64,000 nucleotides of DNA, taken from Octopus sinensis. Its lineage: Eukaryota. Where the stretch lies: assembly GCF_006345805.1 (NCBI RefSeq), contig NC_042999.1:19034001-19098000 (forward strand), given 5' to 3'. Below the pieces are notes generated by a model. That model worked only from the letters and a program-made list of their open reading frames with translations, did not search any database and had not been told where the DNA came from. Positions 13,541 through 37,373 of the stretch are shown here, piece by piece (within the stretch, counting starts at the first letter, position 1; the number at the start of each line of letters is the position of its first letter). The translations under genes and the position numbers were made by a program.

Positions 13541-13969
13541 CAACAAAGCACCTTCGCTCAACAGATCGAAAATTCATATCTGTCTTCTGAAAATTTCAAC
13601 AACAGAAATAAAATTAAACGAAAACCGTTATCCATGTAAATCGTCGCCGATTAAAAGAATTTATTGTCGAACAAATGGGAATATCTTTACAAATGATATT
13701 CTTAATAAAATTTGAAATGATCATTTTCATTTAAAGAATTTATGACAACGTAACTTGATTTTGACTTCAATCTTATTTCATTCACAAGTATTTAAATTAA
13801 AGAAGCAGTCAATTTCCATCAGTTATCCTAGACTGATGCACATGTACACGCATATGCATATACAGATACACCCACATAAATATGTAAACATATATATTTG
13901 TATATTCATATGTATATATATATATATATATATACACTTTATTTAAAGCAGCAGAAAATTCAACAAAAC

Positions 13970-14003
13970 CTGTTACTTTGAGTTTCACGTTGCCGTTCGT
14001 CAG
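13970..14003 (-). ncRNA. Minimal type I hammerhead ribozyme motif (core intact, stem I 5' strand lost at the inversion)
   Basis: Minus strand CUGACGA-ACG(GCAA)CGU-GAAA-CUCAAAG-UA-ACAG. Confidence 0.7.
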
Positions 14004-14008
14004 CAAAA

Positions 14009-14045
14009 CTGTCCGACGAACGGCAACGTGAACTCAGAGTAATAG
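14009..14045 (+). ncRNA. Mutated hammerhead ribozyme copy
   Basis: CUGU-CCGACGA-ACG(GCAA)CGU-GAA-CUCAGAG-UA-AUAG: stem I and palindromic stem III are present, core has U4C and one A deleted. Confidence 0.6.
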
Positions 14046-14259
14046 GTTTTGTTGAATTTTCTGCTGCTTTAAATAAAGCATATTACTCTACACTGGTATT
14101 TGAGTACTCTTTTTTCCACCTTGTTTCACATTTATGTGTTTACTCCGGTATATATATATATGTATATTTATGTGTGAATGTTTATATATATATATAGATA
14201 TATAGATAGATATATAGATAAATAAATAGATATATACATACATATACATATATATACAC

Positions 14260-14384
14260 GAGTGGCTGTGTGGTAAGTAGCTTGCTTATAAAGAATAAGT
14301 CCTGGGGTCGATTTGCTTGACTAAAGATGGTGCTCCAGCATGGCCGCAGTCAAATGACTGAAACAAGTTAAAGAGAGTAAAGAG
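14260..14384 (+). mobile_element. SINE family A, internally deleted
   Basis: Head (..AGCTTGCTTA) joined directly to the tail (AAAGAATAAGTCCTGGGGTCG..) at a GCTTA microhomology. Confidence 0.85.
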
Positions 14385-15339
14385 TATATATATGCATGCA
14401 TATACATGTACATACGTATATATATACATATACATTCATATATATATACATGCATAAACACATACAATACCAATATTTGTGTGTATATAATATATTATTT
14501 ATATAGAACATACGCATATTTGTGTGTGGAAGTATGAGTGCGTGAGTGAATAAGTTCGAATTTTTGCGTTTTTGATATACATCTTTCTTGTTCATTTTAT
14601 ATTTTACGAATAAACATTAATAATTACAAATGCATAACTTTATCACTATATTTCCTACTCTTGTGGGTTCCGTAATTTTGGCAGTTACACACTTTTTTCT
14701 GGACGTTTGTGTTTATTATTTTCTTTCTGTTGTTTTTTGCATATTTATACCCTTAATATATTTACTTATAACCATTCACTTTTCTCACGTCGAATCTTTA
14801 ATAAAATGGAAGCATCGGTGTTAATCTTGTAAACGTGTCGAGAGAAATGAAGATATTTTTACAAGCCTATCACCTTAATTTACACAAATTATAATGGACA
14901 TTCATAATTGCTCAGAAGATAATACGGAAGAATATTCTAAAAACTAGGATAATCAAAACTGAATAAAGGAAATTGAATTAAGGGGAATGTTTGGAAGTAA
15001 ATAGGAAAATGTATCTATCTTACAGAATACCTCTTAAGCCTTAGATCCTCCATTGCTGTCAGCACAACAGACAGCGACGTTTCACCAAACAAACTGATTG
15101 CAGGCTTCCCAACACTTAGTCTTCTTCCGCTTTCCGGTGGAAGTTTGTCTCTCGCTCCGTTAATCGAAGCACATATCCAGGAAATAATAAGGTTTTGATT
15201 TAAGTATATCGACACTCATATACACAAATGTCCAAGGTATCATATATATATCCATATACGCAGTTAAGTCCACACGCACAATCATACAAGCACTGACACA
15301 CGTACATACAAGCATGCGTACATACATTTGTAATAATCG

Positions 15340-33180: not shown

Positions 33181-33314
33181 CAGGAAAGGTCCCAGGAAAT
33201 TCTCGAAGGGAAGGCACATCGTCAGAAGGAGTACGAATAATATTATTTAGAAGGGTGTGCTTCTTTACCTGAGGTGTGGCACGTGCCTCTCAGGACCGCT
33301 TGGGTCCGCCCCTA
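33181..33314. mobile_element. Possible small MITE
   Basis: GC-rich island between (TA)n tracts with degenerate terminal inverted ends CAGGAAAGGTCCCAGG / CTTGGGTCCGCCCCTA. Confidence 0.4.
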
Positions 33315-34484
33315 TATAATATATATTTTATATATATAATATATATATATATATATATATACACTACATATGTATGTTTGACTCTGATGTAAGAATGGAT
33401 AGTGAGTAGGTATAATGTGTAGCCTTTGAAATGAAACTTCTGGTTTATAATCGCAACTTAACTCATAATATAACCATAAAACTCACTTGGCTTTGTGTTT
33501 CATGTATTCTTTTATCGAAGTTATATAAAACTACTATCAGCAAATGACGGCAACTGTGAGATAAAACAGTACATTAGGTATGCATAGATGCAACACTGTA
33601 TGAGTACATCCACACATTATATATTCTTAATATTTTCGGATCAAATCGTGATATTATTAATTCTTTCATGCCCCTGAGAATTCATCATATCATTTACTAT
33701 TCTACGATGCAATTTTGTCTGTTTCCTTATGACAAAATGCACCGGTCTTTTTATATAAGCTTTGGCTTAGTATAATGTTTTATCTTTGATTTATACTTTG
33801 AGAACTTCTTTTCATCTATTGGTTTTATCCTTCATTATTCATAAGCAGTTTATCTCTTTGACATTTCGGTTAGTATACTGAAAAAAGATGATCTAATACA
33901 TTATAGCTCTCTTTGCAATCAGCTGCCTGTTGATACGCATTCACGCACACTCAGATATGTGCAGAAACAGTAAAAGAGTTGTAAAATACTGTGTTAGGTT
34001 AGTGGAAAACATTAGCCTTTGTGACTGAAAATATTTTCCTCCCGCTTACCAGAAGCTTAAGGCAGCGCATAATTGTCTTTCTTTAAAAGCACATATATTC
34101 ATAAATGATGTATGCACACGTATATATGCATATGTGTGTGTGAATATAGATATATATGTATGTGTATATACATATACATGCATATTACACACACCAATAT
34201 AATACATAGATATATATATATATATATATATATATATATAAATAAATAAATAAATATAATAAATATATATATAAATATAAATATATATATATATATATAT
34301 ATATATATATATAAAAAAAGTGAGTTGTGGGGTATCGCACGAGTGGGATTATATAAGAAAAAAGGTTTGAAAATGCAATTTAAACGATGTTTATTTACTT
34401 AACCGGTTTCACTCTTTGGTAAAAGATTGTCAAAAGTTACATTAAGGAAACATTGAATATATGGGTTCAAAAAAAGTTTTTTAC

Positions 34485-34671
34485 ATAATTGTCACATTGA
34501 GTATTATGCATTCAAAAAGGTTTTTACATAATTGTCACATTAGTATTATGCATTCAAAAAGGTTTTTACATAATTGTCACATTGAGTATTATGCATCAAA
34601 AAGGTTTTTACATAATTGTCACATTGGATATATGAATTCAAAAATGTTTTTTTATACATAATTGTCACATT
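34485..34671. repeat. 43-bp tandem repeat, ~4.5 copies (mirror copy at 36068-36270)
   Basis: Unit AATGTGACAATTATGTAAAAACCTTTTTGAATGCATAATACTC starts at 36115, 36158, 36201 and 36244 in the mirror arm. Confidence 0.93.
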
Positions 34672-36306
34672 ACATGTATAGATATAGTGTTTGGTAACAG
34701 AGAAGTTCAATAGTGTGATGAGAATGTTTGGGAAAATTTGGTAGAAAAGGATAAAACAAATATATTATTGGGAATTGGTTGCGTTAATTATTGGTTGTCG
34801 CAAATTGTCACATTACATGTATATAATATACAATCTTCGGTATAATATACAGCCTTTTGACAGCAAAAATTAGAATGGCTTTTTTATACATCTCAGAATA
34901 TTTTAAGTATAAGGCGAGCGATAATATGTTTACTGACCTGTTGGGATTAGCAGAAAGGCTGAACTGGAGAGAACAGAGGAAGTAGCCAATGTGGTGTATT
35001 CTTCCCCTTTATGCATGAATGATTTTGGGGTTATCAGGAGGTTAGTATGCGGGTGTGAGTAGATGTGTTCGTGCCCGCTGGTCAGATAGCGTCTGTTGTC
35101 ACACACATATATACACACACACACACCACACACACAACAACACAACACACACACACACACATAGTAAACAAACACACACCACATACAAACAACACACACA
35201 CACAGAACACACCACCCACACACAACGCACCCACATATATCACATATACACACAGCACACAAATATAATATGTATCTATTATAACATACACAGATATATA
35301 ACACACATACACACACAACACACACACACACACACCACACACACAACACACGCACACATTTGTGTGATATTTATATTATGATGTATGTGTGCGTGTGTTG
35401 TGTGTGTGTGTGTGTGTGTGTGTTGTTGTGTGTGTATGTTGTGTTATATATCTGTGTATGTTATATATAGATACATATTATATTTGTGTGCTGTGTGTAT
35501 ATGTGATATATGTGGGTGCGTTGTGTGTGGGTGTGTGTGTTCTGTGTGTGTGTGTTGTTTGTATGTGGTGTGTGTTTGTTTACTATGTGTGTGTGTGTGT
35601 GTGTGTTGTTGTGTGTGTGTGTGTGTGTGTGTATATATGTGTGTGACAAACAGACGCTATCTGACCAGCGGGCACGAACACATCTACTCACACCCGCATA
35701 CTAACCTCCTGATAACCCCAAAATCATTCATGCATAAAGGGGAAGTATACACCACATTGGCTACTTCCTCTGTTCTCTCAGTTCAGCCTTTCTGCTAATC
35801 CCAACAGGTCAGTAAAAACATATTCTCGCCTTATACTTAAAATATTTGAGATGATAAAAAAGCCATTCTAATTTTTGCTGTCAAAAGGCTGTATATATAT
35901 ACCGAAGATTGTATATATATACATGTAATGTGACAATTTGCGACAACCAATAATTAACGCAACCAATTCCCAATAATATATTGTTTTATCCTTTTCTACC
36001 AAATTTTCCCAAACATTCTCATCACACTATTGAACTTCTCTGTTACCAACACTATATCTATACATGTAATGTGACAATTATGTATAAAAAAACATTTTTG
36101 AATTCATAATATCCAATGTGACAATTATGTAAAAACCTTTTTGAATGCATAATACTCAATGTGACAATTATGTAAAAACCTTTTTGAATGCATAATACTC
36201 AATGTGACAATTATGTAAAAACCTTTTTGAATGCATAATACTCAATGTGACAATTATGTAAAAAACTTTTTTTGAACCCATATTATTCAATGTTTCCTTA
36301 AATGTA

Positions 36307-36347
36307 ACTTTTGACAATCTTTTACCAAAGAGTGAAACCGGTTAAGT
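36307..36347 (+). ncRNA. Hammerhead-like motif with U3-A8 core (mirror copy 34397-34437, minus)
   Basis: ACUU-UUGACAA-UCUUU(UACC)AAAGA-GU-GAAA-CCGG-UU^AAGU followed by AATAAA; stem II base is irregular. Confidence 0.55.
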
Positions 36348-37373
36348 AAATAAACATCGTTTAAATTGCATTTTCAAACCTTTTTTCTTATATATATATA
36401 TATATATATATATATATATATATATGTATATATTATATAATCAAAGTAAGCAACAAGGGTATCCAAGGTAGAGTAGTACAATTGCTTGATTCTACTTAAT
36501 TTTATGAAACACTGCAAGCATTACATCAGTTTTAAAATGTCGAGCAATCTTCAGCCACATATAGCATTTTTCAATTAAACAGACAATACACATTCTTATC
36601 CCTATTTCATTTGCCAACATTATAGAGAGGGTATATATATAGACAGAGAGGTTAATTTCATTCTTACGAACATGATAGTATGTTCATTCTCCGTCTGTAG
36701 TATATAAATAATATATATATATATATATATATATATATATATATATATATATATATATATATATATATTATATACAGAAAGACAGAGAAAGAGGCAGCAA
36801 TTTCCGTCCCAACGATATAGTTTCGCGTTCATTTTCGGCAAGTGTCTTTTTTTACATAACCCAGACCGGCCAATGTATTCATATATCGCTGTGTGTGTGT
36901 ATATCTTTGCGTTTGTAACGTACCCCATCAATGCTCGACAACAGGTGCCGGGTTGTTTACGTTCCCGTTATTAAGCGTTCCAGCAAAAAGGATCTGATAC
37001 AATAAGCACTAGACTTTAAAATATGCACTAGCGTCGATTTGTTCGCCTAAATCCGTTATAACTCTATCCCCAGCTTGGTCCAAATTAATGAGAGAATTAA
37101 GTAGTGAATATGACAAAAGATACATATAAGACTTGCGTTCGGGTCACAAACGGAGATGAACCCATCTCATTATCACCGAGGGAAAGTCCCCATACCGAGC
37201 ATAGAGACTACTGATTTGAGGAATCGTGTCAAACTTATCAGCTGCCTCCCGTTGATGCAATGACGCTGGGAGTTGTTGGTAGGTATCTTCGTCATAGTAA
37301 AGCTAAATGCAAGTGGCACTTTAGTGTTAACAAAATGGGAATTACTCTGAAGGAATTTCTTTTTTTCTTTTAT

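Follow-up and report, generated by a model that had tools for sequence, protein, structure and literature searches.

We analyzed a 64,000-nucleotide (nt) stretch of the Octopus sinensis genome (contig NC_042999.1, positions 19,034,001 to 19,098,000 of the forward strand; hereafter the window), which contains three fold-back elements, designated A (positions 13937-14149), B (20650-21348), and C (34313-36391). Very probably, A and C are 5′-truncated insertions of autonomous Penelope-like elements (PLEs), and B is a noncoding sequence, repeated in tandem and bearing a predicted hammerhead ribozyme, for which a PLE-type enzyme likely does the copying in trans. A sequence-only reading of the window had proposed microsatellite-targeting, PLE-derived or retrozyme-like families with hammerhead motifs, and the TA ends of the elements, the parent open reading frames (ORFs) found for A and C, and the tandem unit of B, which is the retrozyme-like one, bear this out.

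Each family has two fixed 3′ ends, sites 1 and 2, with a spacing of about 70 nt in A, 63 nt in B, and 41 nt in C (range, 41 to 72 nt), and an arm that reaches site 2 carries the intervening stretch as a tail. The ORF of A and C starts shortly downstream of this tail. When fold-backs were taken from motif matches in chromosome order, one tailed and one untailed end were found in 43 of 43 classifiable cases (p about 1e-13 at even odds). For B, 46 clusters were sampled, of which 32 were inverted; 5 of these were set aside with one end interrupted or off-site, and the remaining 27 pairs all obeyed the rule (in two instances, a pair of clusters was later recognized as one insertion). The position-ordered samples of A and C gave 9/9 and 7/7, including 3 A and 4 C pairs that were missed by the regular expression and read by eye, and score-selected sets gave 20/20 and 7/7. 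It has been reported that PLEs often carry a tail at only one end (PMC8557442) and that, in vitro, the tail spans two reverse transcriptase (RT) start sites, both target strands being cut and extended (PMC11167929). The architecture that the elements share is this insertion signature already published for PLEs and not a new convergence. Among the evidence for insertion of B by a PLE enzyme, its adherence to the tail rule is the strongest, and it supports PLE mobilization of retrozymes.

The coordinates and inverted arms of A, B, and C were verified, and (TA)n was present at both ends of each. The elements show no significant similarity to one another (best pairwise E value, 0.62), and the alignment score of B against the pseudo-long terminal repeat (pLTR) of C was equalled in 59 of 200 shuffles. 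All three are high copy rather than single copy, since exact hammerhead-region patterns matched the whole 2.72-Gb genome assembly 4504 (A), 1543 (B), and 349 (C) times versus 0, 2, and 0 times for the reversed-pattern controls. TA runs adjoined 60/71 3′ ends of A and 29/35 of C (criterion, at least 8/10 matching; window background, 5.1%); for B, the figures were 56/72 at 3′ ends and 3/14 at 5′ ends (at least 14/20 matching; background, 5.8%). The fixed 3′ ends and the varying inner junctions show that the arms are 5′-truncated copies joined head to head. The initial picture of a truncated inverted copy facing a longer one is right in that one arm of each element lacks the last 41 to 70 nt, but both arms are truncated at the 5′ side with their 3′ ends outward, and it is the left arm of C, on the minus strand, that is longer and carries the tail.

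These properties can be accommodated in the following model. A PLE RT-endonuclease, probably a dimer, would nick both strands of a (TA)n tract, and the two DNA ends would prime reverse transcription at two internal RNA sites, one each, 41 to 72 nt apart. Both cDNAs would extend toward the RNA 5′ end, stop early, and be joined head to head, yielding a fold-back with one tailed arm. As the arms have their sequence in common, this would require either a second RNA copy or repeated reading of one template. In the case of B, the template may well be a multimeric or circular RNA produced by hammerhead cutting, which would give 1 to 10 tandem units. Twin priming by a dimer, with one start site per strand, is the likely route.

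Family A is represented in the window by the following features.
13937-14001, minus strand: inverted arm of A, 5′ truncated and untailed (ends at site 1), with only the 3′ part of the hammerhead motif
14005-14148, plus strand: forward arm of A, the last ~145 nt of a putative Hydra-clade PLE, tailed (ends at site 2)
14009-14045, plus strand: hammerhead motif of A, damaged (position 4 is C, and GAAA has lost one A)
14072-14077, plus strand: AATAAA, immediately 5′ of site 1
14079-14148, plus strand: 70-nt tail, between sites 1 and 2
18850-18949, plus strand: second, shorter family A copy, tailed, without a hammerhead, ending in (TA)n

The forward arm is 94.7% identical to the 3′ end of an ORF-bearing copy (locus L139), and walking upstream in this and further loci led to an ORF collinear with the A 3′ end. 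Its translation shows RWK, DKT, and a CxCX5C linker, with CxxC and CxH near the end; CCHH is absent, and no cysteines lie between the GIY and YIG of its C-terminal endonuclease. As these are Hydra diagnostics published in PMC8557442, we assign A, on sequence grounds, as the cut-off 3′ end of a Hydra-clade PLE. A partial tandem pLTR directly precedes the ORF in many of 25 family A loci, and in tandem full-length copies the tail extends 67 nt further, reaching the ORF start codon.

The features of C are as follows.
34313-35359, minus strand: left arm of C, the last ~1 kb of a putative Neptune/Nematis-type PLE, tailed
34313-34353, minus strand: tail, in the left arm
34397-34437, minus strand: hammerhead-like motif of the left arm, found with a descriptor
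35358-36391, plus strand: right arm of C, untailed
36307-36347, plus strand: hammerhead-like motif of the right arm, with a U3-A8 core, palindromic stem III, and weak stem I
36349-36354, plus strand: AATAAA, 3′ of the right-arm motif

Both arms are 95 to 96% identical to the last 1 kb of L091, a full-length copy with the order pLTR-ORF-2.2-kb 3′ untranslated region (UTR)-pLTR and a repeat period of close to 5.9 kb. In the window copy, the (CA)/(TG) tract at the center and the 43-bp minisatellite belong to this 3′ UTR. Pfam searches of family C returned RVT_1 (E = 7e-9) and, at the C terminus, GIY-YIG (E = 9e-5), and a partial tandem pLTR lies directly 5′ of the ORF in L091. Since GxKF, DKG, a CX4CxxC linker, and CCHH in the L091 translation fit the description in PMC8557442, C appears to be the end of a PLE of the Neptune or Nematis type. 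Naiad/Chlamys features (N-terminal endonuclease, no hammerhead) were not found, the endonuclease being C-terminal in both A and C. Thus, the absence of an ORF noted before holds locally in the window, whereas A and C are the ends of elements that carry RT/GIY-YIG coding sequence in longer copies; as families they would not escape a protein-based annotation, contrary to what had been expected, and only for B was no parent ORF found. A third PLE family (L140, 5656-8050) was also encountered, linker-bearing and with RT and GIY-YIG; its clean U3-A8 hammerhead motif ends in (TA)n.

The features of B are listed below.
20650-20816, minus strand: inverted arm of B (unit positions 133-299), untailed
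20820-20986, plus strand: first unit, 5′ truncated (unit positions 196-362)
20987-21348, plus strand: full 362-nt putative retrozyme unit, with the tailed end
20986-21028, plus strand: a further hammerhead-like motif, degenerate, that spans the unit junction and has AATAAA (21022-21027) at its end
21049-21065, plus strand: empty 17-bp target site of a Tx1-like long interspersed nuclear element (LINE), duplicated upon LINE insertion; the window copy is LINE-free
21075-21116, plus strand: type I hammerhead motif with a U3-A8 core, 6-bp stem I, and palindromic stem III; the predicted cut follows 21110, which is unit position 124
21286-21348, plus strand: 63-nt tail between site 1 (unit position 299) and site 2 (unit position 362)

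Family B consists of 362-nt head-to-tail units, each with one type I hammerhead motif and no ORF, in arrays of 1 to ~10. Non-LTR retrozymes have been defined as tandem units of 150 to 450 nt with a type I hammerhead in each and no ORF (PMC7229834); B falls within this size range and has the same layout, and by that structural definition it can be classed as a putative non-LTR retrozyme. In two runs presumed to be RNA, the unit was assembled as a 392-nt contig (the unit plus 30), which fits tandem DNA or a circle equally. The U3-A8 core is common to B, C, and the L140 family, a weak hint at a Neptune-type donor for B.

The hammerheads differ in quality, and the claim that each element bears a minimal type I motif with a palindromic stem III upstream of AATAAA stands in part. 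An Rfam scan of the window gave no hammerhead among the 150 of 173 matches listed, and our own descriptor matched B (21075-21116) and both C arms, not A. The motif of B is the best formed of the three, with a 6-bp stem I, a well-formed core, a palindromic stem III, and, in the majority of copies, a stem II of 4 bp (in the window copy, one mismatch interrupts stem II). Its AATAAA, however, follows the degenerate motif, whose stem I does not pair in register by eye, and none lies between the well-formed motif and the 3′ ends. In A, the window motif is damaged as listed above and stem III is near-palindromic, with one central mismatch, but the family core is canonical in 26 of the first 30 loci. 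Two core variants, U4 and C4, are widespread in family A and linked to different letters before GAAA. In C, the core, the palindromic stem III, and the downstream AATAAA are as described, while the motif is irregular: stem I measures 4 bp, stem II is followed by two extra nucleotides, position 17 is U, and the fold energy of the monomer is +6.1 kcal/mol. Stem III duplexes are favorable (−7 to −8 kcal/mol) and fit the dimer model of PMC4209133, in which the U3-A8 core was also reported. Self-cleavage in A, B, and C is a prediction from these motifs.

Several observations weigh against the interpretation given above. No PLE ORF was linked to B among its 30 top matches or 46 clusters, and local alignment of B to the pLTRs of A, C, and the third PLE family and to the LINE UTRs revealed no significant similarity; for these two reasons, the mobilizer of B is deduced from footprints. 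No intact ORF occurred among the family A and C loci read, a Pfam search of four family A ORF pieces gave no match, and the clade call for A is made from motifs. Minimum free energy folds of the short motifs were not hammerhead folds. Core columns of B vary less than the unit (0.17% versus 1.5%), but the difference is not significant, as only 8% of columns vary at all. Furthermore, across copies we found no compensatory change in the helices, only wobble-preserving and loop variants, the families being too young.

The last points bear on the alternative that one pLTR fragment was expanded into the B arrays by unequal crossover at the DNA level, with no circular or self-cleaved RNA, and that the hammerheads of all three families are inert relics. 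Besides the lack of covariation, the weak folds of A and C and the wide spread of the C4 subfamily of A count in its favor, hammerhead mutants did not stop insertion in vitro (PMC11167929), and among nine Xenopus retrozyme dimers tested, eight failed to cleave (10.64898/2026.07.22.740005). Against it, the arrays are short and dispersed, begin at 5′ truncation points that vary, and can be present on both arms of one fold-back; variation in A falls at position 7 and keeps a GNRA loop, and the one common variant of B keeps a G-U pair (some of the underlying counts were not de-duplicated and are used qualitatively). We regard this alternative as somewhat unlikely and B as more likely copied from hammerhead-cut RNA.

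Three of the sampled B insertions contain the same 5.3-kb insert. Taken as a shared 5-kb insert, it had been considered as the parent PLE ORF of B, a candidate that was rejected when its domains proved to be those of a LINE. ORF1 has a zinc knuckle (zf-CCHC), and an open ORF2 of 1140 amino acids has an apurinic/apyrimidinic (AP) endonuclease, RT (RVT_1), and a C-terminal zinc finger (zf-RVT), as in the L1 superfamily; the nearest solved structure to ORF2 is human L1 ORF2p (best PDB match, E = 1e-66). A pattern for the LINE 3′ end gave 65 matches, 25 of which were assigned by eye to a sister family with other flanks. Among the remaining 40, 34 are followed directly by B sequence from unit position 63 or 64, in one B is present on the 5′ side only, and the other five are at unrelated places. 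The 17-bp target in B is duplicated, and the orientation of the LINE is constant. A sequence-specific target with a fixed duplication is a trait of the Tx1 clade, so the insert would be a young, Tx1-like LINE of the L1 superfamily, its clade being read from target behavior. The sister family (L224, L227, L248, L281, and others) is ~83% identical and has the same 3′ end motif and recurrent AT-rich 3′ flanks.

Full-length 5′ ends were found for 35 of 37 visible B-resident copies (two more lie in gaps) versus 1 of 5 older copies outside B, which are not age matched. The B-resident copies form one clade (36/41 rows; support, 100/99, with the bootstrap not settled). They differ by 0.2 to 1.3%, whereas B hosts of different haplotype differ by 2.4 to 6.3% (17 copies), and 20 of 28 LINE-bearing B insertions also hold empty sites. 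The low LINE divergence relative to the hosts, together with the empty sites, favors repeated site-specific insertion. Overall, 3 of 92 target sites are filled; filled sites cluster, with 5/5 in one 29-kb fold-back and 2/2 in two others. That 29-kb B fold-back (G000:C3:72500871-72529895) has an untailed and a tailed end, and in place of a TA tract it shows a short duplication of its flank.

Alternatively, one or a few insertions could be the source of most B-resident LINE copies, with a 5.7-kb composite of LINE and B hitch-hiking on the PLE route, as the nearly uniform full length and the clustering of filled sites would suggest. Nevertheless, at least four B haplotypes contain near-identical LINEs, filled sites stand beside empty ones in most insertions, and LINE-duplication-LINE tandems exist at two loci. 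In addition, the four compared of the five clustered copies differ and share single-nucleotide polymorphism (SNP) patterns with copies elsewhere, although polishing or gene conversion could mimic this. We therefore consider the composite route unlikely as the main source. Rolling-circle copying of one composite, an explanation favored earlier for the five-copy array, was weakened by the differing SNP patterns.

One older relative of the LINE (92%) adjoins a complete U1 small nuclear RNA (snRNA) gene, the U1 5′ 17-mer precedes another at its 5′ side, and the 3′ flank of three others begins with U1-like letters. A one-mismatch U1 pattern gave three matches, namely, one full U1 gene, one LINE at a U1-like start, and one without a LINE. 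A switch of target from U1 to B is thus suggested, tentatively, by few copies. A full-length relative with the U1 5′ 17-mer at its 5′ side (L295, 1137-7823) lies between two U2 genes.

The LINE ends 62 nt upstream of the predicted cut in B, and the target site lies 45 nt upstream of it. In our main reading, the LINE would insert into B by its own site-specific target-primed reverse transcription and be expressed by B read-through transcription, and retention of B host sequence on both LINE RNA ends (62 nt to the downstream predicted cut) would account for precise full-length insertion. More tentatively, we envisage a three-tier stack, possible though doubtful as a whole. A PLE would move the retrozyme into (TA)n; the Tx1-like LINE, having recently switched from the U1 5′ end, would rely on transcription of its host; and cutting by the two flanking hammerheads would free a unit RNA whose two ends match the target, much as in R2 but with a borrowed ribozyme. 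The composite would occasionally ride the PLE route.

It is very unlikely that B is moved by its resident LINE, with B plus LINE as the autonomous form and B alone as a partner like a short interspersed nuclear element (SINE). The LINE is the only RT gene joined to B, and no PLE parent was found, but B ends share the two-site tail rule, fold-backs, and TA targets with A and C, while the LINE makes 17-bp duplications at a non-TA site and fills so few of the available targets. Assembly artefacts from chimeric long reads, which the 2-kb near-perfect palindrome of C (96.7%) and the lack of a raw long read spanning the window loci might suggest, are extremely unlikely because the flanks are not mirrored, the junctions are locus specific, the arms are asymmetric by a fixed tail, and contigs of run X15 (flank depth, 49; kind not on record; possibly the assembly's own sample) show many inverted-to-forward arm joints at about single-copy depth (35 to 102). 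Miniature inverted-repeat transposable elements (MITEs) or Foldback DNA transposons would likewise explain inverted ends and TA targets, yet they can practically be dismissed, as arm length varies by 5′ truncation, the tail is on one arm, B units are in tandem, and A and C have RT/GIY-YIG parents.

Other features were recorded in the window. An RNase MRP RNA gene lies at 37118-37357 (plus strand; 68 bits against a gathering score of 50), and a weak Rfam match for the ribozyme of hepatitis delta virus (HDV) at 29363-29457 (plus strand; 29 bits; E = 3.4) is probably due to chance. An 82-nt hairpin at 30468-30549, with (TA)n at its center and a TA run after it, is possibly a short fold-back or MITE, and a decayed, MITE-like 300-nt fold-back with 72% arm identity occupies 56104-56408. 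SINE-like repeats are abundant in both orientations (788-4450, 37370-37743, 41350-41749, 43165-43604, 48675-48958, and 50182-50595).

Families A, B, and C are new members of known PLE and retrozyme biology, and the supplements of PMC8557442 or Repbase may already list them. They contribute two additions, namely, the full PLE footprint borne by a retrozyme and a LINE whose target is this retrozyme. The tail rule in three families and the footprint of B offer a direct genomic test of whether PLE enzymes mobilize retrozymes and whether a dimer uses its start sites asymmetrically. Likewise, a young LINE with an open ORF2, inserted full length at one 17-bp site beside a ribozyme, provides a compact model for target switching and precise insertion. 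A literature search, with Repbase and subscription papers outside it, found no retrozyme target for Tx1 elements, no Tx1 link to U1 snRNA with a satellite target, and nothing on a hammerhead ribozyme in octopus that bears on these elements.

Compared with known systems, A resembles the Hydra-clade PLEs of PMC8557442 in its RWK, DKT, and CxCX5C motifs, missing CCHH, C-terminal GIY-YIG, pLTR hammerhead, (TA)n targets, inverted 5′-truncated copies, and one-end tail. It differs in its unit, which overlapping copies put at ~3.5 kb, including a 3′ UTR of 1.3 kb, versus the published "<3 kb," in a tail of ~70 versus 30 to 40 nt, and in a subfamily with C at core position 4. C shares GxKF, DKG, the CX4CxxC linker, CCHH, the pLTR-ORF-pLTR order, and TA targets with Neptune/Nematis PLEs (PMC8557442), and the palindromic stem III and U3-A8 core, the latter known in Schistosoma PLEs, with minimal hammerheads (PMC4209133); its 2.2-kb 3′ UTR with a TG tract and minisatellite and its irregular motif set it apart from the Neptune/Nematis elements described there. 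As in the twin internal initiation of Poseidon PAc (PMC11167929), the tail would correspond to the interval separating two RT start sites, with cutting and extension of both strands. In contrast, PAc start sites lie inside the ORF and are not homologous to the target, whereas the sites here lie upstream of the ORF and those of C and B end in TA-like letters; with PAc as the comparison, the strict one-of-each pairing was counted here for the fold-backs.

B is like non-LTR retrozymes (PMC7229834; 10.64898/2026.07.22.740005) in its ORF-free tandem unit with one type I hammerhead, low GC content, and dispersed short arrays. It is unlike known retrozymes in its second degenerate motif and in having no parent pLTR found, and its full PLE footprint (two start sites, one-of-each tail, fold-back, and TA target) is undescribed for retrozymes in the available parts of these two sources. 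Finally, Tx1-clade LINEs are known to target piggyBac, Mariner, Harbinger, and LTR elements, U2, U5, 5S, satellites, and microsatellites (PMC4494074). The LINE in B shares with them the AP endonuclease and RT, the zinc-knuckle ORF1, a fixed target inside another repeat, and target switching between close relatives. It differs from the Tx1 elements covered by that source in that its target is a hammerhead retrozyme, in being almost always full length, and in having older relatives linked to the U1 5′ end.

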